DNA of 64,000 nt, from IMG/VR virus record IMGVR_UViG_3300033075_000275, positions 1 through 64,000 of that record. One strand, 5' to 3'. Below are positions 1,290 through 63,458 of the stretch, one piece after another. The position numbers and the translations under genes were made by a program. This DNA comes from a virus (Duplodnaviria > Caudoviricetes). The notes beneath the pieces are model-generated. The model made no database searches and was not told where the DNA came from. It saw only the letters and a program-made list of their open reading frames with translations. How positions within the stretch are numbered: the first letter of the stretch is position 1; each line of letters opens with the position of its first letter.

Positions 1290-1318
1290 ATTCTACTACT
1301 CCCCGCTTTTTCTGTCAA
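1290..1318 (-). promoter_or_regulatory. sigma70-type promoter for tRNA(CAT) and GT25
   Basis: TTGACA-17 bp-TAGAAT. Confidence 0.85.
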
Positions 1319-2391: not shown

Positions 2392-2446
2392 AGTATCTTC
2401 TACTAGTATATATATTCTTATAGTATAAGAACATAGGGTAGCATCC

Positions 2447-2830: not shown

Positions 2831-2850
2831 TTGCTAATTATACCACTGTT

Positions 2851-3216
2851 TCAACAATATCTTGGATTCCATTTTGTTACTGTCCAATAATTATTTCCAC
2901 CAAGCCATACCTCAATAGTAAGCGAATGGCGTCCTCTATCTAACCTTGTATCTATACCACCATACAATGTTTTTCCAGGTCGTACCCACATCGGGAACAT
3001 AACAGAATGTGATGTGCCCTTATCAAACCATAACTCAAAGGTCCTGCCACGCGGTGCCTTTGGATCAACCGCCAAGCCCGCGATGATATCGTCACAATTA
3101 ACTGTTGTCCATGATACAGTCCAATCAATTCCTCTGTTAACTTGAATTGCCTGTGCTGGTGTAGCCACAAAGAATAGCAAAATTGATGCAATAAAAATAA
3201 TAATTGTTTTTTTCAT
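2851..3216 (-). CDS. secreted protein with Sec signal peptide
   Basis: MKK + hydrophobic stretch + AQA cleavage motif; AGGAGG RBS. Confidence 0.65.
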   Translation of the reverse strand: MKKTIIIFIASILLFFVATPAQAIQVNRGIDWTVSWTTVNCDDIIAGLAVDPKAPRGRTFELWFDKGTSHSVMFPMWVRPGKTLYGGIDTRLDRGRHSLTIEVWLGGNNYWTVTKWNPRYC

Positions 3217-3224
3217 TTTTCCTC

Positions 3225-5510: not shown

Positions 5511-5540
5511 GAGTTCACCTATCCCCCATGGGCGCCAGCG

Positions 5541-7505: not shown

Positions 7506-7538
7506 TTCATCTCCATTATAGTGTTATTTTGTTATAAG

Positions 7539-7922
7539 TCAAGCCGTCATGCATGTTCTCATTATTCTTATCGAAGTGCTTGTTGATACTGGATCGAGTG
7601 TCAACTCTACGTTCGCACCGTTCACGTCTGCCGTTATTTCTCCAAGCACGGTGTTAGTCCAAACCTCACCATATATAGTTATATGAGCATCTGTGCCTGT
7701 ATGTACAACTGTTGCACATAGAGAATGAAAATCGGTTCCATGTATTATCTGAATCCAGTAGAATGCAGTTCTATATGTTGCCTTTGGGAAGGTGTCAACC
7801 ACTGTTGCCGTATCTATTGCATTTACAAGGACACCACGACCAGACGCAGCCCCGGCGAAGGATGCGTCTGTTCCTATTCCTATATCTTTTAGAACGTCTG
7901 CTCTATAGTTTCTAGATGGCAT
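7539..7922 (-). CDS. small virion protein paralogous to the C-terminal domain of the 654-aa fibre
   Basis: DTFPKATYRTAFY..HITIYGEV aligns by eye with DQWTPATYKAVKY..HLTVYGEV. Confidence 0.6.
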   Translation of the reverse strand: MPSRNYRADVLKDIGIGTDASFAGAASGRGVLVNAIDTATVVDTFPKATYRTAFYWIQIIHGTDFHSLCATVVHTGTDAHITIYGEVWTNTVLGEITADVNGANVELTLDPVSTSTSIRIMRTCMTA

Positions 7923-9985: not shown

Positions 9986-10878
9986 TACACACTATCCACG
10001 TAGTATTCTATTTCAAGCAGCGCCCCGGATTTCTTTTCTATTGGACTCGTCAGTACACTTCTGGAAACCAAGCCGTAGTTTGTACTCTGTGTATCGGTAT
10101 CCTCCACTCGCAACCCATCGAATAATACATTGTCATCCACCGCCTCAAATTCTATTGCGATGATGTTACCCCACGATGGAGTGCCAGTTGCCACAAAACT
10201 ACCCTTGCTAACGCTAAATATGCCATACGATGCTGCAATAGACGTAACGGTGGCAGAGTAGTAGTTGCTGTCATCTGTTATGAATTTAAGGTTCAGGTCT
10301 GACGTGCTGGGTGATTCAAGGCAGGCAGCAATTGTGTCCTGTGGTGAGTACATCGTATAGTCACTTGGTACGCCATACAATCGGTATCTTGTCGAAGCCA
10401 ATAGTTCAACCCGGTCGTCACCTATACGCTGGCCAGTCGTACCAGAGTCAACATTTTCCCAATCTGTTCCAGTCCATATACTCCACGACTCCGACGTTTC
10501 TCCATATGAGGTAATCTGAGAACCACCATTGCCAGCATCGCTGTTCGTAACCGCCGAAAATATCCCGACCTCGTATATCCAACCAACTACAGACTGATCA
10601 ACCGATGACTTAATGACGATTTTATTGGGAGTTGGTGATGTATTGAATTCTGCCACCTTGCTTGAAATAGGAGCGCGATAGAACTCAAAATCTAACTTGG
10701 CATCTGTAACGGCAGCGGTTGTTGCGCCTACACCTATGGCAAATGCCCCAGCCCACTCACCGATGGTACCAGCCATATATGACGCTATGATGTCTTTCCC
10801 GGCATTAGTTATGACGTTCTTCGACCTGGCTATTTCTTCACCATCGAGTTTGAATACGTATGTTCCAGATGTAATCAC
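9985..10878 (-). CDS. minor tail protein
   Basis: KNVITNAGKDII..IGVG..TDAKLDFE N-terminus typical of tail proteins; position. Confidence 0.65.
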   Translation of the reverse strand: MITSGTYVFKLDGEEIARSKNVITNAGKDIIASYMAGTIGEWAGAFAIGVGATTAAVTDAKLDFEFYRAPISSKVAEFNTSPTPNKIVIKSSVDQSVVGWIYEVGIFSAVTNSDAGNGGSQITSYGETSESWSIWTGTDWENVDSGTTGQRIGDDRVELLASTRYRLYGVPSDYTMYSPQDTIAACLESPSTSDLNLKFITDDSNYYSATVTSIAASYGIFSVSKGSFVATGTPSWGNIIAIEFEAVDDNVLFDGLRVEDTDTQSTNYGLVSRSVLTSPIEKKSGALLEIEYYVDSV

Positions 10879-52172: not shown

Positions 52173-52253
52173 ATGGATTTCCCCGACCCCATGGCCGTAA
52201 TGGCATGGTTCGCATTTTGGTTTATCCTTTTGCGGTTTATGGGTGATGACTAA
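52173..52253 (+). CDS. 26-aa TM peptide
   Basis: AAAGGT RBS; MDFPDPMAVMAWFAFWFILLRFMGDD. Confidence 0.45.
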   Translation: MDFPDPMAVMAWFAFWFILLRFMGDD

Positions 52254-52279
52254 AGTCTGGGACTAAGGTCCCGACTTTC
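52254..52279 (+). terminator. probable terminator hairpin
   Basis: AAAGTC(T)GGGAC-TAAG-GTCCC-GACTTT. Confidence 0.55.
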
Positions 52280-52291
52280 TGTTAGCTGAAT

Positions 52292-52454
52292 CTTAACCCT
52301 CCCTTAGCCTCGGCTTAGGGGAGGGTTTCTTAGCTTAATCTTAACCCCTTCTTAGCTTGGTCTTAGCTAAATCAACACGCCCGCAATCTTAGCTAAACCT
52401 TAACCACCCCTTAGCTTGCTCTTAACCGCGCGCCCGCCTTAGCTTAATCTTAAC
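52292..52454. repeat. CTTA(A/G)C hexamer array with 11-bp period
   Basis: 13 copies starting 52292, 52303, 52314 (CTTAGG), 52329, 52340, 52351, 52362, 52388, 52399, 52410, 52421, 52438, 52449. Confidence 0.9.
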
Positions 52455-52648
52455 CTTCTGTTTACGACATATTAAGAAAGCGCCGGAAAGTCCTGTGGCA
52501 CAGACACTTTCGAGGTCGTGAAAACCCTTGTGGCAGAGGCACTTTCGGCGTTGAGGCCCCAAAACCCTTGTGCCACAACGGAATCCGAGCATAGACGTGT
52601 ATCTATGCGTTCCCGACGCACTGTAACCTATTTAGCTCGTTCTTAACC

Positions 52649-52714
52649 TGTGACGCAAGTCACACTGGGAAGGGGCCTCTAGGGCTTGTGTGTGTCGGAC
52701 CCTAGGTGTACCTT
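52649..52714 (+). promoter_or_regulatory. perfect CRP-type box plus promoter
   Basis: TGTGA-cgcaag-TCACA at 52649-52664; TTGTGT-17-TACCTT starting 52686. Confidence 0.65.
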
Positions 52715-52738
52715 GTAAGTAGAGAGAAAGGGAAGATC

Positions 52739-53413: not shown

Positions 53414-53459
53414 CAAAATTAGGCAAATTTCCGAATTTTGGCAAATTTGCCTAATTTTG
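53414..53459. repeat. perfect 17-bp inverted repeat
   Basis: CAAAATTAGGCAAATTT-12 nt-AAATTTGCCTAATTTTG. Confidence 0.85.
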
Positions 53460-53470
53460 TGCAAATTTTT

Positions 53471-53537
53471 CTTAACTAAAATTTAACTGTCTCTTAACCT
53501 GGCCTTAACCGGGCGCCCGCCTTAACCCTTTCTTAAC
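53471..53537. repeat. second 11-bp-phased CTTAAC array
   Basis: 53471, 53482 (TTTAAC), 53493, 53504, 53521, 53532. Confidence 0.85.
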
Positions 53538-53787
53538 GTTACGATAACCTTTAAGAAGCGCCTGAAAATCCCTCTGGCACAACGACTTTCGACCCTCCAA
53601 AGCCCTTGCAGCACAGGCACTTTCAGCCACGATACTGAAAATCCTTGTGGCACAGGCGTTTTCGACATATCGATCTGAATGAATATAGCTGAGCGTAATA
53701 GGCCTAAAGTCCTATCAAAGTAGGGACCTATGGGTCTATACCGTGTCGGACCCATGGTGTAGCCTAGAGGCGAGAGAGAGGGAAGAA

Positions 53788-54240: not shown

Positions 54241-54395
54241 TTACCGTTCCGCGTGAAATGGTATGGATTATCGGCATCCTGGCGTTTATCGCCATTTTCC
54301 TTTTCGGCCGGGTTTCGTATGAATACGGAATTATCGAGGGAAAGTGTATTGCCACGGGTGGAATACTAAATGCAAAGGAGGAATGCGTACATTAA
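54237..54395 (+). CDS. 52-aa single-TM protein
   Basis: GTGA overlap; hydrophobic N-half. Confidence 0.5.
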   Translation: MITVPREMVWIIGILAFIAIFLFGRVSYEYGIIEGKCIATGGILNAKEECVH

Positions 54396-54419
54396 CTGAA
54401 TCTTAACCTCGTCTTAACC

Positions 54420-54524
54420 GGGCGCCCGCGCGAGCGCGGGCTGTCAACCCCCTTACGATGTGATGTAGAACACGCTCAACTTTTCGGATATGGGCTTGTC
54501 TGTGTCGGACCATTCTGCTAGAGT
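54420..54524 (+). promoter_or_regulatory. composite repeat/promoter, copy 1
   Basis: GGGCG-CCCGCGCGAGCGCGGG-CTGTCAA..TTACGA-TGTGA-N6-ACAC..TTGTCT-17-TAGAGT. Confidence 0.85.
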
Positions 54525-54553
54525 TGTACCACGACCTAGGGAAAGGAACCATC

Positions 54554-54751
54554 ATGGATGACTACGCTGACTTCGCGGACTTCGCAGCGGAGGACTACTT
54601 CGATGACTACCCCGGCGACTTCGACGCCGAGCAGGACGACTGGTTCCCCGAGGACGACGACGCGCCCGAGCAGGACTGGCCCGAGGACGACGCGGAGCGG
54701 GACGCCTTCTACGCCGAGGCGTGGGCCGACAGTTATCCCGATTGGGGCTGA
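54554..54751 (+). CDS. extremely acidic 65-aa protein (DNA-mimic candidate)
   Basis: 27 of 65 residues D/E, one Arg, no Lys, 15 aromatics; AAAGGA RBS. Confidence 0.65.
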   Translation: MDDYADFADFAAEDYFDDYPGDFDAEQDDWFPEDDDAPEQDWPEDDAERDAFYAEAWADSYPDWG

Positions 54752-54758
54752 CCCTAGC

Positions 54759-54874
54759 CCGACTACTCTCCGTAGTCGGCGGGCGCCCGCGCGAGCGCGG
54801 GCTGTCAAGCCCTTACGATGTGATCTACCTCACCCCTGAAAACACTAGACCTAGGCAGATTTTTCCGATAGCCT
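54759..54874 (+). promoter_or_regulatory. composite repeat/promoter, copy 2
   Basis: CCGACTAC-TCTCC-GTAGTCGG; core at 54781; TAGACC-17-TAGCCT. Confidence 0.88.
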
Positions 54875-54907
54875 AGGGGCACAAGGTAAACGACCTAGGG
54901 AGTCAAG

Positions 54908-55270
54908 ATGGTTGACGTCACATTCACCGACCACGCCTACCGAAAGTTGGGTGGTGACGTCGATCTGGCCAAGCGTGTCGTGCTGGCAGCGAAGGCTCCC
55001 ACAGTGACCTACCCCAACGGTCGCTTCCCTGGCCAGGTCCGTTGCATCCGTGACGGCATGGTCGCCGTCGTCGCTGGCACTCGTATCGTGACGTTCTATG
55101 CGAATATCGTGGAGACGGACATTCGCCCGGACCAGACTGACGATGACGCCAAGGCGTATCAGGCGAAGCGTAACGCCGAGCGCGCGAAGCGCGACCGGAA
55201 GCGCCAGCAGAAGCGCGACGCTGACCGCGCTTTCACCGCTGCACAGAAGGCCGGAAAGGGGCGCAAGTGA
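54908..55270 (+). CDS. hypothetical protein, possible DUF4258/RelE-like fold with basic tail
   Basis: TFTDHAYRK..TVTYP..R..VAVV..IVTFY. Confidence 0.55.
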   Translation: MVDVTFTDHAYRKLGGDVDLAKRVVLAAKAPTVTYPNGRFPGQVRCIRDGMVAVVAGTRIVTFYANIVETDIRPDQTDDDAKAYQAKRNAERAKRDRKRQQKRDADRAFTAAQKAGKGRK

Positions 55271-55479
55271 CTACTCACGACAAGATCGTTGATCTTGCTA
55301 CTAAGATCGCGCGATACAGGCTGAATAACCCCTCCCAAAGGGCGGGGCAGGCATTCATGAATGTTCTTTCGGCAGAATATCCCGATCTGCATTCCGCAGT
55401 TTTTATCAGCGGTGTCGATCCATTCTACAATGACGGCTTGCTCTCCGCCGCTTGGGGCATTGTTTCGCAGAATATCTAA
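55267..55479 (+). CDS. hypothetical protein
   Basis: QRAGQAFMNVL....PDL...I...DPFY; GTGA overlap. Confidence 0.6.
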   Translation: MTTHDKIVDLATKIARYRLNNPSQRAGQAFMNVLSAEYPDLHSAVFISGVDPFYNDGLLSAAWGIVSQNI

Positions 55480-55489
55480 CAGCAATACC

Positions 55490-55603
55490 GCGATTACTCT
55501 CCGTAATCGCGGGCGCCCGGCCCAGGCCGGGCTGTCAAGTCCTTACGATGTGATGTATGTCACGCCTAAAAGTGTAGACAGACTGGCGCTCATGGTGTAA
55601 CCT
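55490..55603 (+). promoter_or_regulatory. composite repeat/promoter, copy 3
   Basis: GCGATTAC-TCTCC-GTAATCGC; core 55511; TGTGA-tgtatg-TCAC; TAGACA-17-TAACCT. Confidence 0.9.
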
Positions 55604-55622
55604 GACAGTAGGAGGTAAGGAA

Positions 55623-55898
55623 ATGATCTTGGGTATCGACCGAATCGAGCGCCGGGCCGCAGTGAATCTGCCCGCAACGTGCAACCTTTTCGGTGATTGT
55701 GGTCTGATTTTCAGTGTCGAGGTTTTCGTGCATTCCGTAAATGGTGACGTGTGGGAGGTAGAAATCCGCGATTTGCAGAGTGGGGTTTCGATTTACTCTC
55801 CGCCTGACAAGGAATGGAATTTGCTCGTACCGGAAACAATGGCCGAGGCCGAGCCTTACCTTTACCTCCACCTGTGGACGATTGGAATGATTGACTAA
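55623..55898 (+). CDS. hypothetical protein
   Basis: AGGAGG RBS after promoter. Confidence 0.6.
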   Translation: MILGIDRIERRAAVNLPATCNLFGDCGLIFSVEVFVHSVNGDVWEVEIRDLQSGVSIYSPPDKEWNLLVPETMAEAEPYLYLHLWTIGMID

Positions 55899-56185
55899 TG
55901 GGATACAAATTCACCGCGCATGGTAATTGGATGACCATGCACTTTGACGCGCCGCTGACAAGCGCGGGCGTTGTCAACGTTGGCGGTTACTGGTGGAATT
56001 CCCTTCGGGCCGACCCTTACCGGGCCGCTGCCAAATTCGCCAATGAGCGTACCCCATTCCGTAATGACCCTAATTGCCCTACGGCAATGGAATTCTGGGC
56101 CGGGGTTACCGATGATGACCTTGCCGAATTCGACAAGCGTAATCAGGAATTGTCTGATAATGTTGCTAAGTGGGGTTCTGAGTAA
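55898..56185 (+). CDS. hypothetical protein
   Basis: TAATG overlap. Confidence 0.6.
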   Translation: MGYKFTAHGNWMTMHFDAPLTSAGVVNVGGYWWNSLRADPYRAAAKFANERTPFRNDPNCPTAMEFWAGVTDDDLAEFDKRNQELSDNVAKWGSE

Positions 56186-56195
56186 TTCCAGGCCC

Positions 56196-56309
56196 GTGAT
56201 TACTCTCCGTAATCGCGGGCGCCCGGCCCAGGCCGGGCTGTCAAGTAGTTACGATGTGACATAGGACACCCCTGAAAATATTGACACAGAGACTCGCAGG
56301 GTGTAGTCT
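56196..56309 (+). promoter_or_regulatory. composite repeat/promoter, copy 4
   Basis: Core 56217; TGTGA-N6-ACAC; TTGACA-17-TAGTCT. Confidence 0.9.
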
Positions 56310-56315
56310 AAAGAC

Positions 56316-56480
56316 ACAACAGAACAGAGGATGACAGCAGGAGCGGGCTAGACCGAGGGATTTAGTCACCCCCATGAAAGCCCACTACTCCCCAAGGGTG
56401 GACGCCGGATTGACGATCACAACTCCCAGGGACATAGGGGAAAGTCGAACCCGCTTCTGCCGTGATCTTCTGTTCGGACA
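56316..56480 (+). ncRNA. candidate structured ncRNA (about 160 nt) closed by a ~26-bp terminal helix
   Basis: 56322-56347 pairs with 56450-56475; bounded by two promoters; no credible ORF. Confidence 0.65.
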
Positions 56481-56482
56481 AC

Positions 56483-56511
56483 TTGACAAGTCAATAGCGT
56501 GGCGATATACT
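56483..56511 (+). promoter_or_regulatory. promoter for tRNA cluster 2
   Basis: TTGACA-17-TATACT. Confidence 0.85.
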
Positions 56512-56557
56512 AGTCTCCTACCGGGGCGCATCCAAAGGGACCGGCCCGGTAGTGTAT

Positions 56558-56635
56558 GCCATGGGCGCTGGGACGCATACGAGTCTGTAAAACTTGTCTC
56601 ATATGGGTAGCAAGGTTCGATTCCTTGACATGGCA
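56558..56635 (+). tRNA. tRNA-Tyr(GTA)
   Basis: CGAGT-CTGTAAA-ACTTG; long variable arm; CAAGG-TTCGATT-CCTTG; ends approximate. Confidence 0.8.
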
Positions 56636-56639
56636 CAAA

Positions 56640-56699
56640 TCAAGGGTAATCCGGCTCGACGGCGACGGCTGTTGTGGTGTTCGAATCACCTCCCTTGAT
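56640..56699 (+). ncRNA. tRNA-like element lacking a normal anticodon arm
   Basis: TCAAGGG/CCCTTGA acceptor stem, T8-A9, GGTG-TTCGAAT-CACC T arm; only 26 nt in between. Confidence 0.55.
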
Positions 56700-56702
56700 T
56701 AT

Positions 56703-56777
56703 GGCCCCATCGTCTAATGGCTAGGATTGCGCCCTTTCAAGGCGCAGGAAGGGGATCGAAACCCCTTGGGGCTACCA
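56703..56777 (+). tRNA. tRNA-Glu(TTC)
   Basis: GCGCC-CTTTCAA-GGCGC; encoded CCA. Confidence 0.92.
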
Positions 56778-56803
56778 GATTAGGAATATGGTATACTAAT
56801 CAT

Positions 56804-57100
56804 ATGGCATATTCTGATATCGAAAAAAGAAATGAATGGTTTCGCAAACGCTATCAAGATAATCTTGAGTTTGTTCAAAACTATAAAATGAAAATCGGAT
56901 GTTCTGACTGTGGATGGAATGAGCATCACGCGGGGTTAGAATTTGATCACGTAAATCCTCATGTGCGCGGAACAGTTTCGTCACAATTAGGAAAGTCAAG
57001 AAGAGTTATACTAGAAGAAATATCTGCTTGTGAGGTAGTTTGTTCTAGGTGTCATTCACTTAGAACATGGAACAGAAGAGCCCAGATGGTTCAAGAGTAA
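56804..57100 (+). CDS. small HNH-like endonuclease inside tRNA cluster
   Basis: CSDCG..LEFDHV..EEISACEVVCSRCH; leaderless TGG-TATACT promoter at 56789-56797. Confidence 0.8.
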   Translation: MAYSDIEKRNEWFRKRYQDNLEFVQNYKMKIGCSDCGWNEHHAGLEFDHVNPHVRGTVSSQLGKSRRVILEEISACEVVCSRCHSLRTWNRRAQMVQE

Positions 57101-57129
57101 GATTTCGGGTTCGATTCCCGTTGGGACTA
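57090..57129 (+). pseudogene. 3' half of a second tRNA-Glu(TTC)
   Basis: TTC-AA-GAGTA-AGATT-TCGGG-TTCGATT-CCCGT-TGGGACT-A fits tRNA positions 34-73 exactly; no matching 5' half. Confidence 0.7.
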
Positions 57130-57238
57130 CGTAGCAAAACTATCGGCAAGGCCAGTCGGTAGAAAGGGAGGGCGCTGTAGCGAAAGCAGGCCCTAACAAA
57201 AACCGTCAATGACGGTAACAAAGCCTCCCAAATATAAT

Positions 57239-57312
57239 TCCGGTGTAGTGTAATGGTAACACAAGTGCTTCCAAACCATTTGATAGGGGTTCGATTCCTC
57301 TCACCGGGGCCA
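57239..57312 (+). tRNA. tRNA-Trp(CCA)
   Basis: AGTGC-TTCCAAA-CCATT (one C-C mismatch); G73; encoded CCA. Confidence 0.8.
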
Positions 57313-57313
57313 A

Positions 57314-57385
57314 GCCTCCATAGTGAATGGGTTATCATGCATCCCTGTCAAGGATGCGAAACGGGTCCGAGTCCCGTTGGAGGCG
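57314..57385 (+). tRNA. tRNA-Asp(GTC)
   Basis: CATCC-CTGTCAA-GGATG. Confidence 0.88.
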
Positions 57386-57391
57386 CGTTAA

Positions 57392-57462
57392 TCTCCTATA
57401 GTTCAATGGCAGAACGGATGGCTGTTAACCATCTAATCTAGGTTCGAATCCTGGTGGGAGAG
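57392..57462 (+). tRNA. tRNA-Asn(GTT)
   Basis: GATGG-CTGTTAA-CCATC; CTAGG-TTCGAAT-CCTGG. Confidence 0.92.
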
Positions 57463-57508
57463 CGGGCGAGAGATACCAGGGTTTAAACGTATTCCTCTCC
57501 ACCCCTAA

Positions 57509-57579
57509 GGGGGTATAGTATAATGGCAAAACCGCTGGCTCTTACCCAGCAGATCGGAGTTCGACTCTCCGTGCCCCTA
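57509..57579 (+). tRNA. tRNA-Lys(CTT)
   Basis: GCTGG-CTCTTAC-CCAGC; CGGAG-TTCGACT-CTCCG. Confidence 0.9.
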
Positions 57580-57581
57580 CT

Positions 57582-57692
57582 GTTACCGTGAGTGATCGCG
57601 GGCGCCCGGCCCAGGCCGGGCTGTCAAGTGTTTACGATGTGATCTAGGACACTTCTAAATATCTTGACAGATGACAACTTTTACTATAGCCT
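57582..57692 (+). promoter_or_regulatory. composite repeat/promoter, copy 5
   Basis: Core 57600; TTGACA-17-TAGCCT. Confidence 0.88.
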
Positions 57693-57698
57693 AGTTAC

Positions 57699-57968
57699 AT
57701 GAGCCGCACAGACAAGACCGACCCGTGGTGGACTCAGGGTACATGGGTTCCCGTACACGATCACTCTAGGGGAGCGTGTACTCTCCCTGCCAATCCGCCC
57801 TGTCACCACATCACCACGTCATACCGTCACGGTAAGTGCCACTGGACTAAGCGTTGGGATGAGGTCAAGTGGTCCCGTGACAAGTCGGCTGATCGTGCCG
57901 AGCGGGAATGGCTTACTCGCAAGACCCGCTATCGTCGTAACCGTTTGCAGAACGATGATTGGGATTGA
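57699..57968 (+). CDS. hypothetical Cys/His-rich phage protein, leaderless
   Basis: ATG 6 nt after -10; MSRTDKTDPW.. Confidence 0.65.
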   Translation: MSRTDKTDPWWTQGTWVPVHDHSRGACTLPANPPCHHITTSYRHGKCHWTKRWDEVKWSRDKSADRAEREWLTRKTRYRRNRLQNDDWD

Positions 57969-58078
57969 TTACTCTCAGTAATCACGGGCGCCCGGCCCAG
58001 GCCGGGCTGTCAAGTGTTTACGATGTGACTTAGATCACCTGGAAATATCTAGACCGTCACAGTGAATCGTGGTATAGT
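57966..58078 (+). promoter_or_regulatory. composite repeat/promoter, copy 6
   Basis: Core 57986; TGTGA-cttaga-TCAC; TAGACC-17-TATAGT. Confidence 0.9.
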
Positions 58079-58084
58079 CTAACT

Positions 58085-58231
58085 ATGAGTAGCCGACCGA
58101 ATCCTCGCCGGGCAAGTGAACACCAGCGTATCGTTATTGAGCGCCGTCGATCCAGCGCCGCATCCCCTCATGTCAACCGCGTCCGATATGATCGCAACCG
58201 TTCTAATAGGGAATGGAAGCGTGATGCCTGA
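58085..58231 (+). CDS. 48-aa Arg-rich protein, leaderless
   Basis: MSSRPNPRRASEHQRIVIERRRSSAASPHVNRVRYDRNRSNREWKRDA. Confidence 0.6.
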   Translation: MSSRPNPRRASEHQRIVIERRRSSAASPHVNRVRYDRNRSNREWKRDA

Positions 58232-58392
58232 CTCTATAAATCCAATGCATGAACCGCCACACGCGCACGGTATTGCTCTCAGCCCCGCCGATGTGAGGCA
58301 ACTAGAGGCAGCGCTAGACGCGCCTCCTGCCGTGATCGAATCGTTACGCAAACTTCTTGACACCCCCCCCCTCAATCTGATAGGGTACTCGT

Positions 58393-59100
58393 ATGGCACT
58401 CACCCGATCCAAGGACCGCAAGGTTACTAACGCTGTTTCGCCTAATGGAAAGACGGCAGTAATTGCTAATTCATTCGGCCTTCCTGCCGGAAAGGCATTT
58501 AGTTGCCCCGGCGCTACCCCATTCTGCGAGCGTATTTGCTACGCTGGCAAATTGGAAAAGGTTTACAAGGGTGTGCGTAATGTCCTTATGTCCAACTGGA
58601 ATCAATTGCAGAATGTCACGTTTTCGGAAATGGTCGAATTGCTCGACCGTATGATTACCGATTTCGAGGCGGAATGCGATAAGCGCGGGGCCGATAAGGC
58701 ATTCCGTATCCATTGGGATGGGGATTTCTTTAGCAACGATTACACTATCGCATGGCGCGAGGTTATCAACCTTCACCCCGATACTCATTTCTGGGTTTAC
58801 ACGCGGGTAAAGGATGCGGCAATGATGCTGCACAATGCCAACCTTTCTAACCTTTCGCTTTACTTTAGCGCCGACCGCGACAATATCTACAATGCCCGGT
58901 TGCTTTCTAGCGTCGGTATCAACGTTGCATATGTCGATGACACTTTCGCACAGGGTAAGGCAGAATTTCCGAAGGCTGCCCGGTGCCCTGAGAATAACAA
59001 GGCTATCCCCCTCATTTCCACTAAGGGTAGCGCGTGCATTGTTTGCGGCCTTTGCGTGAATGGTCGGAATGACGTGCTGTTTGCGGTGAAAAAGCGATGA
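58393..59100 (+). CDS. mycobacteriophage gp88-like protein
   Basis: RSKDRKV..NSFGLPAG..SCPGAT..C..ICYAGKLE..FRIHWDGDFFS; promoter TTGACA-18-TAGGGT at 58357-58386. Confidence 0.8.
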   Translation: MALTRSKDRKVTNAVSPNGKTAVIANSFGLPAGKAFSCPGATPFCERICYAGKLEKVYKGVRNVLMSNWNQLQNVTFSEMVELLDRMITDFEAECDKRGADKAFRIHWDGDFFSNDYTIAWREVINLHPDTHFWVYTRVKDAAMMLHNANLSNLSLYFSADRDNIYNARLLSSVGINVAYVDDTFAQGKAEFPKAARCPENNKAIPLISTKGSACIVCGLCVNGRNDVLFAVKKR

Positions 59101-59171
59101 ATAGTTTTGTCACCTTTCTAGTTATCCTGGGAATTGCATTCTTTTGGATGGTCTATTGGAAACCACGCTAA
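59097..59171 (+). CDS. 24-aa TM micropeptide ending WKPR
   Basis: ATGA overlap; MNSFVTFLVILGIAFFWMVYWKPR. Confidence 0.5.
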   Translation: MNSFVTFLVILGIAFFWMVYWKPR

Positions 59172-59179
59172 GTAACCCC

Positions 59180-59293
59180 GCCGTCACTCTCTGTGACGGC
59201 GGGCGCCCGGCCCAGGCCGGGCTGTCAACCCCTTACGATGTGACGTGGATCACCCATAAAACTATAGACTCCCGACCCCTGATCATGTATGCT
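59180..59293 (+). promoter_or_regulatory. composite repeat/promoter, copy 7
   Basis: GCCGTCAC-TCTCT-GTGACGGC; core 59201; TGTGA-cgtgga-TCAC; TAGACT-17-TATGCT. Confidence 0.9.
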
Positions 59294-59324
59294 TGCATCA
59301 TCACCTAGAGAAAGAGGTAATACA

Positions 59325-59456
59325 ATGGCTCTGTCCGTTCTCATCGCCGCCGAGGTTTGGAATCGTAAGGACGGCGCGGTTGTCAAGTCCGTCGTTCGTA
59401 CCGAGGATGGCCGATTCGTCGGCGTGACCAACCAGACGCGGGAGGTCAAGGCATGA
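59325..59456 (+). CDS. hypothetical 43-aa protein
   Basis: GAGGT RBS; MALSVLIAAEVWNRKDG.. Confidence 0.55.
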   Translation: MALSVLIAAEVWNRKDGAVVKSVVRTEDGRFVGVTNQTREVKA

Positions 59457-59668
59457 GCGAGAAGTACGCTCTTGACGTAATGCCGGGGGACATTCTCGAT
59501 CTTGACGAGCGTGGCCCCGTGCTGGTCGATTACGTTTTCCAACCTAGCGATGACTACTCCGCCGTTGTCATTAGCGGTTATGACCCCGATGGTGATGAAT
59601 TCGATGAGGAATTCGACCCCGATGACGTGCTGACCGTTCGTCATAACCTCGCCTATCTTTGGGACTGA
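59453..59668 (+). CDS. acidic hypothetical protein
   Basis: ATGA overlap. Confidence 0.55.
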   Translation: MSEKYALDVMPGDILDLDERGPVLVDYVFQPSDDYSAVVISGYDPDGDEFDEEFDPDDVLTVRHNLAYLWD

Positions 59669-59669
59669 T

Positions 59670-59858
59670 ATGCCTACCCCGTTCGAAATCCTGTTCCCCG
59701 CCGAGGCGGCAATGCGTGATATGCGTATCTGCCCGCTCTGCCAGGTTGCCATCAACCCCGGCGATTTCCGCGATGCTATTTCGCTGCGAGAGTCAGAGAT
59801 TAGCGGCATGTGCCAGACGTGCCAGGACAACTTTTTCACCGATGGAGACGAGTGGTAA
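59670..59858 (+). CDS. small Zn-finger protein
   Basis: CPLC..FRDAISLRESEISGMCQTCQD. Confidence 0.65.
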   Translation: MPTPFEILFPAEAAMRDMRICPLCQVAINPGDFRDAISLRESEISGMCQTCQDNFFTDGDEW

Positions 59859-60079
59859 TGACCATTCTGTGTGGTAAGACCCGTCCGCAAGCCGACCCGT
59901 ATGAGATTTGGGTCGATGGTGACTGGACGTGGCTGGTGCTGAAAAAGTATCAGAACGACGACCGCAAGCCTTATGCACGCTGGCTTTGTGCGGTAAAGTC
60001 CCCGTTCACCTTCGGTTCGTATGAGGTTGGCGACGTGTATGCTGCCGAGGTCATGGATTCTGCGGAGCGGGTTCTCTAA
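59858..60079 (+). CDS. hypothetical phage protein
   Basis: TAATG overlap; CGKTR..PYEIW..WTWLVLKKYQ..YARWLCAVKSP. Confidence 0.6.
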   Translation: MTILCGKTRPQADPYEIWVDGDWTWLVLKKYQNDDRKPYARWLCAVKSPFTFGSYEVGDVYAAEVMDSAERVL

Positions 60080-60252
60080 TGGATAGGCAATGGCGTCGGA
60101 CATTCTTTCTGTCCCTCGCCATTTGCTTTATCCTATTCAGTGTGTTTCGTGCCGTTCTACTGGTCTATATTGCTGAGCAGGAAAAGGTGACGGGCGAACC
60201 TAACTACAATTGTACAATTTGTACAACTGTCCCCCCTGATTACTCTCCGTAA
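60079..60252 (+). CDS. 57-aa single-TM protein
   Basis: TAATG overlap; stop lies within repeat copy 8. Confidence 0.45.
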   Translation: MDRQWRRTFFLSLAICFILFSVFRAVLLVYIAEQEKVTGEPNYNCTICTTVPPDYSP

Positions 60253-60350
60253 TCACGGGCGCCCGGCCTAGGCCGGGCTGTCAAGTCTTTTACGATATGA
60301 CATAGAGCACGCCTAAAACTATAGACTGTCACTCTGCCACATGCTATTCT
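60238..60350 (+). promoter_or_regulatory. composite repeat/promoter, copy 8
   Basis: Core 60257 with perfect CCCGGCCTAGGCCGGG; TAGACT-17-TATTCT. Confidence 0.9.
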
Positions 60351-60378
60351 TGACCTACCAACCGAGAAAGGAACCCAA

Positions 60379-60609
60379 ATGTCATCATCCCCCGGAGTGT
60401 TCATCGTCAAGGACGGTCGGCCCTTCATCGACGTTCTCACCGTTACCGAAAACATGTGCCAGTTCGCGGTGAATATGCTTCGATCCAACAACGCCCCCGT
60501 TCCCCGCGAGATGCTTGAGTTTTTCGGTGAGGCTGCGACGATGCGGGCGGAATACATCATTGTAGAGGCCGACCTCGCCATGCTCGACCCCGATACTGTG
60601 ATCGTCTGA
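60379..60609 (+). CDS. hypothetical protein
   Basis: AAAGGA RBS. Confidence 0.6.
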   Translation: MSSSPGVFIVKDGRPFIDVLTVTENMCQFAVNMLRSNNAPVPREMLEFFGEAATMRAEYIIVEADLAMLDPDTVIV

Positions 60610-60616
60610 GGAGAGC

Positions 60617-60880
60617 ATGATGACTGATATTCCCGAGGGTGTAATCGGATCATACAAGGTCACCCTTCTAGTAGATCGGAAGCCTTGGATGCTCGACCCG
60701 GCTGATTGGGATTGGGAGGCTCTGTGTGGTCCCGATACCAAGGTTGTCGATTGCCACCTCGTAGGGGTTCGACTGGATGATGATGAGTTATATGCCCGGC
60801 TGGATGAAACCCGCCAGACTTGCGGTCAGCCAGACAATTGTGGCGACTGCGACCACACTTCTGGGAATGGAAATCTGTGA
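60617..60880 (+). CDS. hypothetical protein with C-terminal Cys cluster
   Basis: GAGGAG RBS; CG..DNCGDCD. Confidence 0.55.
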   Translation: MMTDIPEGVIGSYKVTLLVDRKPWMLDPADWDWEALCGPDTKVVDCHLVGVRLDDDELYARLDETRQTCGQPDNCGDCDHTSGNGNL

Positions 60881-61371
60881 ACAGTAACAAGACTCAGATT
60901 CATCGCAAGCGTATATCACGCCCTATGCTATGGCTTGTGAATAACGTGCGAGTGTTTGAGAATGCACGTGTGCTTCATTTCGGTGAGGGCCGCGCGTTTC
61001 TCGACACCCAGGCCCTTATTGATGAGGGAGCATATGTAACTGCGTATGACCCTTATTCCCCCGCGCCTGCTCAGCGTGACGATGTTGTCATCTACAACTA
61101 CTACGACTATGTAATTGCAGTCTACGTATTTAACGCTCTGGAACCGGGAGAGCGCATTCAGGCCTACTCCGATTTCATTACCGCCAAGATGGGTGGAGTC
61201 GGATACATTGCCTTGCGTACTGACAAAATCGCCGGGGTACCCTATGAGGATGGCGTCATTACCCAAAAGTATACCTTTCAGAAGTCTTACACCCCCGAGT
61301 CAGCGGTCGAGGAATTCGGCGGCAAGGTAATTCACAAGGGTTCCGGCTTTCTCATTCTGGAGATTTCATAA
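60877..61371 (+). CDS. SAM-dependent methyltransferase-like protein resembling the phosphorothioation-associated MTase domain
   Basis: ISRP..VLHFGEGRAFLD..AYDPY..YVFNAL..ER..DGVITQKYTFQKSYT. Confidence 0.7.
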   Translation: MNSNKTQIHRKRISRPMLWLVNNVRVFENARVLHFGEGRAFLDTQALIDEGAYVTAYDPYSPAPAQRDDVVIYNYYDYVIAVYVFNALEPGERIQAYSDFITAKMGGVGYIALRTDKIAGVPYEDGVITQKYTFQKSYTPESAVEEFGGKVIHKGSGFLILEIS

Positions 61372-61390
61372 CTAACGACGATCTTATCCG

Positions 61391-61500
61391 GTCCATTCTG
61401 GACGGCGGGCGCCCGCGCCAGCGCGGGCTGTCAAGTCTTTTACGATAAGTTAAATATTTCCCCTAAAAACCTTGACATCCACCCTGGCAGCATGTAGAAT
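61391..61500 (+). promoter_or_regulatory. composite repeat/promoter, copy 9
   Basis: Core 61407 with CCCGCGC-CA-GCGCGGG; TTGACA-17-TAGAAT. Confidence 0.88.
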
Positions 61501-61506
61501 GACCCC

Positions 61507-61575
61507 ATGGACCTACTATTGATGATCTTGTTAGGTGTGACCCTCGTCATACTCGCAGTCACTTGGAAGCCCTAG
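61507..61575 (+). CDS. 22-aa TM micropeptide ending WKP, leaderless
   Basis: MDLLLMILLGVTLVILAVTWKP; ATG 6 nt after -10. Confidence 0.55.
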   Translation: MDLLLMILLGVTLVILAVTWKP

Positions 61576-61632
61576 ACATAGCCGCCCGAATCTGCTAGAC
61601 TTGCATCACAAGCCAATCAAGGAAGGAACAAC

Positions 61633-62640
61633 ATGCCTGCTGCTGTCGAAACCTCCGGTCGCCTCGCGGCCTTTGCTTCCCGTGAGGTGCCCGCGTGGCA
61701 CGCGCTGGGAACTGTCTTTGAGGGTAACCTCAACACTCAGGAAATGCTCGCTCTCGCTCACCTGAATGGATGGAACGTTCGGCTCGTCCCGTTTGAGGCT
61801 GTCCTCGACTTCGACACCTATGCCAAGCCGCAGTTTCTCGTCGTCCGCGATAACCCGTTCGGTGACGGCCAGGGCGTTCTCGGCACGGTCGGCTCCCGCT
61901 ACAATGTCGTGCAGAACGAACAACTGTTCGACTTCGGTGACCTCATCCTCGATGGTGGTGGCCGCTGGGAGACTGCCGGGTCCATCAAGGGCGGAACCCA
62001 GGTGTTCGGCTCTCTCGCCTTCGATGAAAAGACCATCACGCTCGACCCCGATGGTCGCTCTGACGAGGTAAAGACGTTCCTCCTGGTCGTGACCGGCCAC
62101 GACGGCTCATGTGCCGTTACTGCTATCGTGACTCCTGTTCGTGTCGTGTGCGCGAACACGCTGGCCGTTGCCCTCGGTGGGGCCAAGTCTAAGTTCACGA
62201 TTCGTCACACTTCCACGGTCGATGGCAAGATCGCTGCCGCTCGTAAGGCGCTCGGTGTGACCTTCGGTTACATGGACGCTTTCCAGGCAGAGGCTCAGGC
62301 CATGATCGAGAAGGAAATCACTAAGGCCACCTTCGATGACCTTGTGACCTCTCTCTACCCGATGCCCGAGAAGGACGCCAAGGGATCGGTGAAGAAGTGG
62401 ACGACCAAGATCGACCAGATCGAGGCAATTTATCTCGGTCAGGCTGACGGTCCCGACACGACCTCCGCCATTCGCGGAACGGTTTGGGGCGCGTACAATG
62501 CCCTTACCGAAAATCTGGACTGGTACGGTAAGATTCGGGCGGGTAACGTCGAATCCCTTACCCTTGGTGCTGCTGGTCTGGATATCGCTAAGGCTGCTGA
62601 GAAGGAGCGGATTCACTCCCGCGTCCTGGCTCTGCTCTGA
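61633..62640 (+). CDS. DUF932 / TIGR03299-type phage-plasmid protein
   Basis: PAWHALG..VVQNEQLFDF..WETAGSIKGG..HDGS..TPVRVVCANTL..IRHT..GTVWGAYNALTE. Confidence 0.88.
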   Translation: MPAAVETSGRLAAFASREVPAWHALGTVFEGNLNTQEMLALAHLNGWNVRLVPFEAVLDFDTYAKPQFLVVRDNPFGDGQGVLGTVGSRYNVVQNEQLFDFGDLILDGGGRWETAGSIKGGTQVFGSLAFDEKTITLDPDGRSDEVKTFLLVVTGHDGSCAVTAIVTPVRVVCANTLAVALGGAKSKFTIRHTSTVDGKIAAARKALGVTFGYMDAFQAEAQAMIEKEITKATFDDLVTSLYPMPEKDAKGSVKKWTTKIDQIEAIYLGQADGPDTTSAIRGTVWGAYNALTENLDWYGKIRAGNVESLTLGAAGLDIAKAAEKERIHSRVLALL

Positions 62641-62709
62641 CATTCCATCCTGGGCATGATGTAAAACTGCCTCCACACTTTGTACCATTCAGCATCCACA
62701 TAATGTACC

Positions 62710-62835
62710 GCGATTACTGAGAGTAATTGCGGGCGCCCGGCCTAGGCCGGGCTGTCAAGTCCTATTACGATAGATTACGAAAATCACTGAAATTCGCAGA
62801 AAATCCTTGACACGCTGGCCTGTAGGGTGTACCCT
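62710..62835 (+). promoter_or_regulatory. composite repeat/promoter, copy 10
   Basis: GCGATTAC-TGAGA-GTAATTGC; core 62731; TTGACA-17-TACCCT. Confidence 0.88.
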
Positions 62836-62876
62836 AGGGGTAGTCAATGAGATGAAACCGACGGACTACAAGAAGG

Positions 62877-63107
62877 ATGGCTGACTGTATGACATTTCGT
62901 ATTGACACCGCTAAGTTTGGTGACATGCTGCCCAACGGAGCCACCTTCATCGGTAGCCGGTGCAGGGCTAAGGGCGAGTGGATCGTCCTTGCCAACTATC
63001 GGGGAGAGTTTGTAACCTGGGCTTCTACCGTCAACGGTGAAACTTTTTGGGGTAGGTACTTCCAAACCCACATCGTTGACGCCGTTTCCGATTTTCAGAC
63101 GCGGTAA
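62877..63107 (+). CDS. hypothetical protein
   Basis: GAAGG RBS; EFVTW......G.TFWG.YF. Confidence 0.55.
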   Translation: MADCMTFRIDTAKFGDMLPNGATFIGSRCRAKGEWIVLANYRGEFVTWASTVNGETFWGRYFQTHIVDAVSDFQTR

Positions 63108-63209: not shown

Positions 63210-63458
63210 ATGGCCACCACGGTCAAGCCCACCCCGTCCCTCGTCCGCGCGTTCGCTGCGGCTGCCAAGGATCAGGGCCTCGCTCCTGACGACCTGGCTG
63301 TCCACCAGCGCGGCAAGGTTTCCAAGGCGGAGGTCATCTTCTACCTCCACCAGCACCCCGCGACTACGCGCGAACTTGCTACCGGCCTTGGCCTGGAAAT
63401 CGGCAAGCGCGGCGTGATCGCTGAGTCCGTTTTCGCTGCCGTTGCCGACTCTCTCTGA
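63210..63458 (+). CDS. protein with two divergent Lsr2-like DNA-binding motifs
   Basis: VRAFA..QG..V.QRGKVS and TRELATGLGLEIGKRGVIAESV; AGGAGG RBS. Confidence 0.6.
   Translation: MATTVKPTPSLVRAFAAAAKDQGLAPDDLAVHQRGKVSKAEVIFYLHQHPATTRELATGLGLEIGKRGVIAESVFAAVADSL

Follow-up and report, generated by a model that had tools for sequence, protein, structure and literature searches.

A repeated hairpin-promoter unit predicted to divide the early genes of an uncultured actinobacterial phage into separate transcription units

Overview of the array

Judged from the sequence, ten units of about 115 bp appear to split the early genes of an uncultured actinobacterial phage into separate transcription units. 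The window, that is, the whole stretch of DNA that was analysed, comprises 64,000 nucleotides. The parts of a unit follow each other in the order hairpin A, hairpin B, CTGTCAA, TTACGA, usually a TGTGA-N6-TCAC box and an A-tract, and the promoter. Each copy is probably a composite transcription boundary, closing one transcript and opening the next from a regulated early promoter. The upstream module (hairpin A, GGGCG, hairpin B and CTGTCAA) would be transcribed as the 3'-terminal part of the cassette before it, folding into two neighbouring RNA hairpins, which would end, attenuate or stabilise the preceding transcript and guard the next unit from read-through. The downstream module would be a regulated early promoter, read by the host principal-sigma RNA polymerase. 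A composite boundary with its own promoter in every unit would thus allow independent expression of about ten small early operons. The cassettes contain mostly small genes of unknown function, plus GP88, DUF932 and Lsr2-like proteins and tRNAs. The array follows a known phage design in a new form and is not an integron.

The repeated core

The 28-nt core, GGGCGCCCG(GC/CG)C-N-AG(GC/CG)CGGGCTGTCAA, is followed 4–6 nt downstream by TTACGA. Its ten copies, from 54420 to 62731, are all found where the initial annotation had placed them, on the plus strand and oriented with the genes, and the 28-nt core GGGCGCCCGSSCNAGSSCGGGCTGTCAA is exact in every one (Table 1). The combination CTGTCAA-N3-6-TTACGA has exactly ten matches, on the plus strand only, against 0.01 expected, and none of 100 shuffles reaches ten. 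Both degenerate copies, annotated at 52428 and 53511, are present as well. Whole-copy identity is only 50–82%, yet the core and TTACGA are invariant, which points to selection on the blocks and not to recent duplication. A simple terminator would not need GGGCG, CTGTCAA and the outer part of hairpin B to be as nearly invariant as they are.

The copies had been described as always intergenic. This holds strictly for the core alone, since hairpin A runs into the upstream gene in two copies, covering its stop codon in copy 6 and its final codons in copy 8.

Elsewhere in the 79.9-kb record there is only an inverted copy of the core. This eleventh core (genome positions 64661–64688, 661 nt beyond the window end) has one mismatch and lies where the array is met by genes running leftward (from 65256). 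It retains CTGTCAA, and its own strand has neither TTACGA nor a promoter; thus the core and the promoter are separable modules.

Table 1. Positions and features of the ten units and two degenerate copies (window coordinates).
Copy	Span	Strand	Core	TTACGA	-35	-10	Other features
1	54404..54524	+	54420-54447	54453	TTGTCT 54496	TAGAGT 54519	TGTGA-N6-ACAC box; CTTAAC repeats where hairpin A would be; model hit 39 bits; promoter of GTGTCGGACC class, 37 nt from TTACGA
2	54752..54874	+	54781	54813	TAGACC 54846	TAGCCT 54869	hairpin A CCGACTAC/GTAGTCGG; hairpin B GCGC-type
3 (exemplar)	55488..55603	+		55543-55548	TAGACA 55575	TAACCT 55598	hairpin A 55488-55512; hairpin B 55515-55532; CTGTCAA 55532-55538; TGTGATGTATGTCACG 55549-55564; A-tract; fold z -5.98; covariance model 84.6 bits
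4	56192..56309	+	56217		TTGACA 56281	TAGTCT 56304	hairpin A 12 bp incl. one U·G pair; fold z -6.35; predicted promoter target non-coding stretch and tRNA genes
5	57586..57692	+	57600		TTGACA 57664	TAGCCT 57687	hairpin A weak, directly 3' of tRNA-Lys
6	57966..58078	+	57986		TAGACC 58050	TATAGT 58073	hairpin A begins on stop codon of upstream gene; cassette with GP88-family gene
7	59177..59293	+	59201		TAGACT 59265	TATGCT 59288	hairpin A 11 bp, GCCGTCAC/GTGACGGC; fold z -6.60
8	60233..60350	+	60257		TAGACT 60322	TATTCT 60345	hairpin A covers last codons of upstream gene; hairpin B loop TA
9	61388..61500	+	61407		TTGACA 61472	TAGAAT 61495	promoter 11/12 consensus positions; hairpin A divergent; hairpin B GCGC-type; no TGTGA box; cassette with DUF932 gene
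10	62708..62835	+	62731	62765, 62775	TTGACA 62807	TACCCT 62830	second TTACGA 26 nt from -35; hairpin A with flipped loop TGAGA and one G·U pair
degenerate	53511..53545	+		TTACGAT 53539			GGGCGCCCGCC; CTTAAC repeats; no hairpin B
degenerate	52428..52469	+		TTTACGA 52463			GCGCGCCCGCC; CTTAGC/CTTAAC repeats

The promoter module

The promoter reported behind each copy is found in all ten cases: the pattern T(T/A)G(A/T)C(A/C/T)-17 nt-TANNNT lies downstream of every core, with a 17-nt spacer throughout. An A-tract resembling an UP element is situated upstream of the −35 box. The gap between TTACGA and the −35 box is 26 nt in eight of the ten copies and 27 nt in one; in two copies it is 36–37 nt, that is, one extra helical turn, copy 10 having a second box at 26 nt. 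TTACGA lies at about −67 to −62, where it would be bound by a protein regulating transcription that presumably takes place early. A CRP/GlxR-like box, TGTGA-N2-TA-N2-TCAC, occurs in eight of the ten copies, centred near −53.5. This is not a classical activating position for a CRP-type box, and the box is absent from the relatives.

In distant relatives, whose DUF932 protein is about 55% identical, TTACGA is kept 27 nt from the −35 box, and the order of parts matches: GC hairpin or box, TTACGA, A/T-rich stretch, −35, −10. There TTACGA is often doubled, at a distance of 11–14 nt, and is three to four times over-represented on the gene strand. Two of these relatives (L038 and L058) retain CCCGGCCCG...TTGTCAAG-cat-TTACGA.

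Analogous units in cluster BE phages

In the nearest cultured relatives, Streptomyces phages of cluster BE, the corresponding region is part of a direct terminal repeat, about 11 kb long, in which Lsr2-like and DUF932 genes are also found. A roughly twofold depth step suggests that the array studied here is likewise in a terminal repeat. The terminal repeat of Jay2Jay has an analogous double GC palindrome and a promoter between nearly all genes. The units of Jay2Jay and Samisti12 share with ours the hairpin past the stop codon, the second GC palindrome, the A/T-rich stretch, the −35 and −10 boxes (TAGACT) and the related gene context. Their sequences differ (GGGCCC-TTCG-GGGCCC, GTCCG-N3-CGGAC, AAACGGACAT), they have no TTACGA, and the covariance model built from our copies gave no match to them. 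In the set of papers searched we found no description of the cluster BE intergenic unit, and PMC5764925 does not mention it.

Hairpins as RNA or DNA

In eight of the 18 stem pairs both partners change; shuffles give 3.4 (none of 500 reaches eight) and slid registers 0–2. Hairpin B has only two forms, GGCC/GGCC or GCGC/GCGC, its arms switching from GC to CG together. The proposed covariation of both palindromes is thus confirmed, with two corrections for hairpin A: its stem does covary, but copy 1 has no hairpin A, and the stem reaches into the invariant GGGCG. Of nine copies folded in silico as RNA, six give z-scores from −3.3 to −6.6. Hairpin A adjoins or overlaps the upstream stop codons, and the hairpins sit exactly at gene 3' ends.

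Copy 10 (loop TGAGA) and copy 6 (loop TCTCA) indeed have reverse-complementary loops. The initial annotation took this as an argument for function as DNA rather than RNA, which does not follow: the same stem is kept in the RNA when the loop is flipped, hence the flip cannot separate the two. Among non-Watson–Crick pairs in well-folded stems, the plus strand has G·U in copies 4 and 10 and three more in copy 5, against only one A·C pair in the correctly aligned stems, a count based on few pairs. The G·U pairs together with the strict covariation favour predicted sense-strand RNA hairpins over DNA cruciforms.

We consider it unlikely that the core acts as double-stranded DNA, either as a palindrome recognised by a dimeric protein of the phage or the host (repressor, roadblock, ParB-like protein, nicking enzyme) or as a cruciform. 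Such a site would agree with the perfect and almost invariant palindromes GGGCGCCC and hairpin B, with the retention of GGGCGCCCGCC in two degenerate copies having no hairpins, with the relatives' own GC palindromes in the same place (GGGGCTAGCCCC; GTCCG-N3-CGGAC in the BE phages), with one box occurring in both orientations in relative L031, and with the flipped loop of copy 10, which shows that loop orientation is unconstrained. A precedent is the repeated regulatory motif of Cluster O mycobacteriophages, a 17-bp palindrome (TGTTCGG-N3-CCGAACA) in 34 copies, thought to be bound by a dimer (PMC4351075). However, hairpin A covaries freely and hairpin B changes from GC to CG in its two arms at once, which fits pairing and not base-specific contacts, and each plus-strand G·U pair would be an A·C mismatch on the other cruciform strand. 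Moreover, GC-rich arms of 7–8 bp with a 2-nt centre are not readily extruded, and in one copy in relative L029 the GGGCTAGCCC palindrome is interrupted by a 9-nt loop, as a hairpin allows.

Termination or processing

The statement that the palindromes, having no U-tract, are not terminators holds for the missing U-tract; the conclusion is weakened by the location of the hairpins at gene 3' ends and by the inverted core, which lies where leftward transcription would meet the array. Purified mycobacterial RNA polymerase requires a U-tract for termination, with or without NusA or NusG (PMC3993855), so unaided termination at hairpin B is doubtful. Since the U-tract is missing, the hairpins would probably act with a factor (Rho, a nuclease or a phage protein) and not by pure intrinsic termination. 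They may also serve in RNA processing or stabilisation only.

It is rather improbable that the two hairpins are an RNA element acting on RNA polymerase or a protein (put- or nut-like antitermination), or an RNase III/E processing site, and not a stop. A pair of neighbouring hairpins that lacks a U-tract and has invariant flanks would suit this role, and RNase III cuts the early mRNA of T7 at hairpins between genes. On the other hand, the loop of hairpin A is flipped or replaced in copies 5, 9 and 10, which argues against boxB-like loop recognition, and no Rfam family match was found for the hairpins. Read-through is also not needed, because each unit is directly followed by its own promoter.

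Recombination and cassette change

In addition to the boundary role, and not as a substitute for it, the copies could be PeSL-like recombination modules: homologous exchange between them would delete or duplicate cassettes, swap them or turn them into circles, and this would drive the early region's plasticity; we regard this as possible but tentative. The 50–100 bp of shared sequence make the copies substrates for ordinary homologous recombination too. Few array genes have homologues in relatives (GP88, DUF932 and one small gene), and units flank both the GP88 and the DUF932 gene, here as well as in relative L033. All four combinations of hairpin B variants and spacer variants occur among the copies, as expected from exchange between copies. 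In environmental variants an extra unit of about 211 nt is present at the degenerate core 53510–53520, flanked by an 11-nt core repeat. In cluster BE, the gp4 and gp16 cassettes of Jay2Jay are missing from Samisti12, where each site is occupied by a single chimeric unit whose crossover falls within the shared core.

However, near-identical environmental variants show four well-supported indels, and three of these are inside cassettes (56637–57105, 60783–61260, 62853–62903). Variant contigs end at almost every copy, as expected of a 31-mer assembler at exact repeats, and whole-cassette changes are invisible for the same reason. The BE units are analogous and not sequence homologues, and gene-sized indels end between genes anyway. 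Only one of the four indels in this phage lies at a core; in cluster BE, two gene indels fall at the analogous units. Since the latter are crossover points, ordinary homologous recombination between copies is plausible.

The array had also been called integron-like, in the sense that promoterless cassettes would be excised and inserted site-specifically at the repeat. Only the appearance, regular short cassettes bounded by a structured repeat, speaks for this. Each cassette has its own promoter, unlike integron cassettes, and carries one to five genes or tRNAs; most variant indels are away from the copies. No match to a tyrosine or serine recombinase (Phage_integrase, Resolvase) was found in the 79.9-kb record, which is 63% complete. 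With no integrase found and one of four indels at the core, this reading is not supported and we consider it extremely improbable.

Comparison with known systems

We read the units as likely to work like the PeSL (promoter-early stem-loop) units of T4-type phages (Arbiol et al. 2010, PMC2839356; Comeau et al. 2014, PMC4122927) and like the host-takeover module of SPO1. The PeSL analogy, proposed in the initial annotation, is apt. In both cases about 100 bp of conserved intergenic sequence comprise a GC stem-loop, an A/T-rich tract (A-rich here) and a sigma70-type (here sigma70/SigA-type) early promoter, in many copies around small, non-essential genes that have no known function and form part of a variable region, and the shared homology can mediate cassette indels, here seen for the analogous BE units. 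There is no sequence relationship, and our units belong to an actinobacterial siphovirus, the PeSLs to T4-type myoviruses. Our units have two predicted hairpins, one of them almost invariant, and additional conserved boxes: GGGCG, CTGTCAA, TTACGA at a constant 26 nt, and TGTGA-N6-TCAC.

The host-takeover module in the terminal redundancy of the Bacillus phage SPO1 and the pre-early region of T5 (PMC10531801), whose comparison with BE phages was made in PMC5764925, similarly contain clustered small early genes of unknown function in many short operons; unlike our array, the SPO1 units lack a single repeated composite sequence as their building block.

Actinobacteriophages have other repeated regulatory motifs besides that of Cluster O. 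These are short, conserved, in many intergenic copies per lineage, and in some cases palindromic and tied to promoters. They include the stoperators of Cluster A, the start-associated sequences of Cluster K and the phiC31 early promoters with conserved inverted repeats. Such motifs are single short sites, mostly read as protein-binding DNA, whereas the unit described here, 115 bp long, is composed of several parts, covarying hairpins among them, and occurs in one 10-kb array only.

Array of units and its conservation

The pattern CTGTCAA-N3-6-TTACGA occurs ten times in the window (0.01 in shuffled sequences), always on the + strand, and each of the ten copies reported in the initial annotation was found. 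All ten contain the exact core GGGCGCCCG(SS)C-N-AG(SS)CGGGCTGTCAA. The two degenerate copies mentioned there are also present; they keep G(C/G)GCGCCCGCC and TTACGA and have no hairpins. An eleventh, inverted core has one mismatch. The window covers bases 1–64,000 of an IMG/VR virus record of 79,872 bp, with an estimated completeness of 63%, and pattern searches yielded no further copies in the remainder of this record. The covariance model built from nine copies matches only the ten plus one sites in the window and genome positions 50–70 kb. The copies are 50–82% identical to each other over about 130 nt, with the core and TTACGA invariant, hence selection acts on these conserved blocks, and they do not simply date from a recent duplication.

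Megablast of the array against 50,697 phage records produced no match, and neither did a search for the exact motif in the IMG/VR and JGI metagenome contigs. Neither 30 related loci nor the Streptomyces phages of cluster BE gave a hit with the two-hairpin covariance model. By these comparisons, the motif is unique to this phage lineage.

Coordinates of the array, its surroundings and the variants (genome positions unless another sequence is named)
Feature	Position	Remarks
Cores of copies 1–10	54420–62731	+ strand
Degenerate copies	52428; 53511
Inverted 11th core	64661–64688
Variant indel	56637–57105	tRNA-Glu and HNH endonuclease replaced by 52 nt, two runs
Variant indel	60783–61260	478 nt deleted inside cassette 8
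Variant indel	62853–62903	51 nt past copy 10 promoter replaced by 228 nt
Variant indel	53510–53520	degenerate core; extra unit of ~211 nt, 11-nt core repeat at flanks
Disregarded joints	8578>8983; 8679>11900; 9016>12268; 11939>12497	L065 (this record from genome 50 kb on)
GP88		array protein, PF17338, E 2e-54
DUF932		array protein, PF06067, E 3e-53
HNH endonuclease		array protein, family match
Lsr2 DNA-binding domain	63491–64012	PF23359, E 8e-16
Neighbour of the Lsr2 protein	63210–63458
Acidic protein	54554–54751	65 residues
Proteins with a common repeat	59325–59456; 64309–64530
T-arm and acceptor look-alike	57101–57131
Heptamer runs	52250–52470; 53440–53540; 54395–54420
Direct repeats of ~22 nt	52480–52600; 53560–53680	three in each
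Second promoter class	52680–52715; 53735–53770; 54496–54524
Non-coding stretch	64530–65260	L065 14530–15260
14-mer in Jay2Jay	10652–10665	Jay2Jay coordinates

Layout of the unit and its predicted promoter

The layout was derived from the ten-copy alignment, the folds and the position table. Hairpin A has a stem of 7–12 bp and a loop that is usually the 5-nt TCTCN, and its 3' arm enters the invariant GGGCG. Copy 1 has no hairpin A; in copy 6 the hairpin starts on the stop codon of the preceding gene, and in copy 8 the final codons of the gene before it lie within the hairpin. Hairpin B is GCCCGGC-CCAG-GCCGGGC or its GCGC version, followed by CTGTCAA, 4–6 variable nucleotides and TTACGA; directly 3' of the latter, eight of the ten copies have T(G/A)TGA-N2-T(A/G)-N2-(T/A/G)CAC. 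Then come an A-tract and a promoter, with the -35 box T(T/A)G(A/T)C(A/C/T), exactly 17 nt, and the -10 box TANNNT. This arrangement is seen in all ten copies, and thus the assertion that each is followed by a -35/17/-10 promoter holds at the sequence level. The gap between TTACGA and the -35 box is 26 nt in eight copies, 27 nt in copy 2, and 36–37 nt in copies 1 and 10, the latter with a further TTACGA box 26 nt from the -35 box.

Other promoter assignments were considered. CTGTCAA and TTACGA do not form a -35/-10 pair, as the spacing of 4–6 nt is far too short, and TGTCAA was rejected as the -35 box of a divergent minus-strand promoter, since no -10 box follows it. TACGAT was considered as the -10 box of a second, upstream promoter; no -35-like hexamer is present. 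No gene with the sigma70 region 2 was found in the record.

The TGTGA box is in its sequence a good likeness of CRP/GlxR sites and is a candidate operator, with the centre near -53.5 in an unusual, not classical position. It is particular to this phage, and the relatives have no such box.

Several other repeats occur nearby. Runs of the heptamers (T)CTTAAC and CTTAGC, more than 15 copies in total, precede both degenerate copies and copy 1, where they replace hairpin A; these runs are possible binding sites for another protein. Direct repeats of about 22 nt (CCTTGTGGCACAGGCACTTTCG-like) sit in non-coding stretches of about 200 nt between TTACGA and the next promoter. Promoters of a second class have GTGTCGGACC between the -35 and -10 boxes. 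Related motifs ATGTCGG, TGTCTGACC and CTGTCCGACC occupy the same promoter place in distant relatives (DUF932-carrying contigs L029–L038), and CGGACAT boxes are found upstream of promoters of Jay2Jay, a cluster BE phage.

Probable RNA hairpins and transcript ends

The initial annotation described both palindromes as covarying, and this is confirmed: 8 of 18 stem pairs change on both sides, compared with 3.4 in shuffled alignments (none of 500 reaches 8), while registers slid by 1–3 columns give only 0–2 such pairs. Hairpin B exists only as GGCC/GGCC or GCGC/GCGC, and this four-base compensatory change is explained by base pairing, not by base-specific contacts of a protein. On the other hand, GGGCG, CTGTCAA and the outer part of hairpin B are strictly conserved, and this is what chiefly speaks for retaining the alternative that the core is bound by a protein as DNA, which we consider improbable.

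In well-folded stems, G·U pairs on the + strand are seen in copy 4, copy 10 and, three of them, copy 5, whereas correctly aligned stems contain a single A·C pair; the counts are small, and they point to sense-strand RNA. The fold z-scores range from -3.3 to -6.6 in six of nine copies. The flipped loop of copy 10, previously used to argue for function as DNA, is real; however, it leaves the RNA stem equally unchanged and shows only that the loop orientation is unconstrained. With the loop not discriminating, the covariation, G·U pairs and folds suggest that A and B fold as hairpins in the RNA, at the 3' end of each cassette transcript. In the Rfam search only tRNAs passed, and the best hit on a copy was anti-hemB (20 bits, the threshold being 49.5).

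As proposed earlier, the palindromes have no U-tract: hairpin B is directly followed by CUGUCAAGU. Of the two parts of a canonical intrinsic terminator, a GC-rich hairpin and an immediate U-tract of 7–9 nt, only the hairpin is present. Purified mycobacterial RNA polymerase depends on the U-tract whether NusA or NusG is present or not (PMC3993855); the hairpins may therefore act with the assistance of a factor, or may just stabilise or process the 3' end.

TTACGA in distant relatives

Contigs with DUF932 proteins at 54–59% identity and GC content of 42–51% feature the same intergenic layout as this phage. Its first part is a GC hairpin or short palindrome, GGGGCTAGCCCC in L029 and L030, (G/A)GCGCC in L033, and CCCGGCCCG in L038 and L058. 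TTACGA lies 15–35 nt after it, often doubled at a distance of 11–14 nt (roughly one helical turn), and then come an A/T-rich stretch and the -35 and -10 boxes. L038 and L058 also retain TTGTCAAG-cat-TTACGA, and in L033 both GP88 and DUF932 are flanked by units, as they are here. On the gene strand of these contigs TTACGA is over-represented 3–4 times, and the gap that most often separates it from a TTGACA-like hexamer is 27 nt. The position of TTACGA, 26–27 nt upstream of the -35 box, is the same in phages that share only about 55% identity in DUF932 and range from 42 to 53% in GC content. The conserved layout and spacing show that TTACGA, at about -64, is a cis-element of long standing in these phages and is constrained in its position. 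Nothing relevant on TTACGA in phage promoters emerged from the literature search.

Some relatives with low GC content (L016, L020, L021) have four to five copies of a perfect DnaA-box-like GTTATCCACA in the DUF932 neighbourhood.

Possible exchange of cassettes

Near-identical variants of the stretch were found in activated-sludge and wastewater runs, and runs X1 and X2 contain 99% of the stretch. The variant contigs (environmental runs X3–X6) end at almost every copy. This was not taken as a sign of recombination, since a k-mer assembly is expected to break at any exact repeat of 31 nt or longer. Joints with the shorter side below 35 nt were disregarded as likely repeat or foreign matches, and only the four indels supported within contigs were counted. 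One of the four is at a core; the other three are inside cassettes.

In the terminal repeat of Jay2Jay, nearly all genes are separated by an analogous unit, a double palindrome with a promoter. These BE units (L026, that is, Jay2Jay 1–10778, and L066–L069) contain GGGCCC-TTCG-GGGCCC, GTCCG-N3-CGGAC, AAACGGACAT and a promoter with a TAGACT -10 box. The Jay2Jay cassettes of gp4 and gp16 are absent from Samisti12, a second cluster BE phage, and at each of the two sites there is instead one chimeric unit, whose upstream half matches one flanking Jay2Jay unit and the downstream half the other, the switch being inside the shared core. The breakpoint test suggested in the initial annotation, when run on the BE phages, therefore identifies the analogous units as the crossover points of the gp4 and gp16 indels. 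This is homologous exchange of the PeSL type and not site-specific recombination (PMC2839356).

The array was also likened to an integron. This is not supported: the record, although incomplete, contains no match to PF00589 or PF00239 for a tyrosine or serine recombinase, and each cassette carries a predicted promoter, whereas integron cassettes are promoterless. An integron-like mechanism is thus extremely improbable. A real additional role of the units in cassette shuffling is possible, though less likely than not.

Inverted core and a possible terminal repeat

The inverted core retains CTGTCAA and has neither TTACGA nor a promoter on its own strand. It sits in a non-coding stretch of 730 nt, the place where the array and the leftward genes (from 65256) converge. 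Hence the core is a separate transcript-end module, and TTACGA goes with the promoter. The same stretch contains four TTACGAT boxes, ATGTCCGTTT twice, and a GC hairpin followed by a T-run.

A 14-mer of this stretch, TATATCCCATATGT, is shared only with Jay2Jay, where it is located about 115 bp inside the terminal-repeat boundary, and in three runs the contig depth drops about twofold past ~65.3 kb. Based on these two observations, the array may lie in a collapsed direct terminal repeat, which would extend from about 46–52 kb to about 65 kb. In cluster BE phages, DUF932 and an Lsr2-like gene are in a 10.8-kb direct terminal repeat (PMC5764925).

Comparison with PeSLs

The units resemble the PeSLs of T4-type phages in having a stem-loop, an A/T-rich tract and a host-type early promoter around small genes of unknown function. 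A predicted promoter is present in all ten copies; the possible counterparts of the stem-loop terminator or attenuator are predicted, covarying hairpins with no U-tract. The gene context is that of a hyperplastic region, with one in four variant indels at a core and the BE units being junctions. However, there is no sequence relationship to the T4-type PeSL consensus, and the phage is a siphovirus related to Stanwilliamsviridae, not a T4-type phage. The units further differ in having two hairpins, one of them invariant in sequence, extra boxes at fixed spacing, and TTACGA conserved beyond the genome. Thus the proposed analogy is valid for the order of parts and the gene context, but not for membership by sequence or lineage. 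The array also resembles the SPO1 host-takeover module (PMC10531801). In the literature searched, such units are not described for BE-like phages. The general design is already known; the actinophage version is new.

We consider the regulatory reading of the units probable. A broader scheme, in which TTACGA is the operator of an early-promoter regulator across a wide, mostly uncultured set of DUF932/GP88 phages, the U-tract-less double hairpin (GGGCG...CTGTCAA) is a factor-dependent transcript-end signal, and the unit both regulates genes and is the recombination joint of a hyperplastic early region in a long terminal repeat, is tentative and, taken as a whole, rather unlikely.

The design of repeated terminator–promoter units around small early genes, known in T4-type phages, would also exist in large actinobacterial siphoviruses, and for an uncultured wastewater phage the array supplies some ten candidates for early promoters and for transcript-end signals. 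The fixed distance of TTACGA from the -35 box could be of use in the search for the regulator and in early-gene prediction for related phages from metagenomes, and the U-tract-less double hairpin bears on how actinobacterial transcription units end.

Phage affiliation and genes of the cassettes

The genome is related to the Stanwilliamsviridae siphoviruses. The best cultured matches of its DUF932 protein, at 53–54% identity, are from the Streptomyces cluster BE phages of this family (~133 kb), and protein-anchored searches of IMG/VR, JGI metagenomes and GenBank phages yielded no relative with DUF932 identity above 59%. Apart from GP88, DUF932, the HNH endonuclease and the protein with the Lsr2 domain, no array protein has a family match.

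The 65-residue protein, the sole gene of cassette 1, is very acidic and aromatic-rich and could be a DNA mimic. Two neighbouring proteins have Lsr2-type DNA-binding repeats; in the first, the RGK/KRG-type repeats were seen by eye only. Two small proteins have the common repeat (E)VWN-K-G--V--V(V)R-E-GRF(L/V)GVTN and hence are paralogues within the array; homologues of the upstream one are encoded beside DUF932 in contigs L033 and L009.

Just after the HNH element there is a look-alike of a T-arm and acceptor 3' half, with a weak match to a tmRNA 3' end (E 0.048); the element may have split an RNA gene. The BE phages carry one tmRNA.
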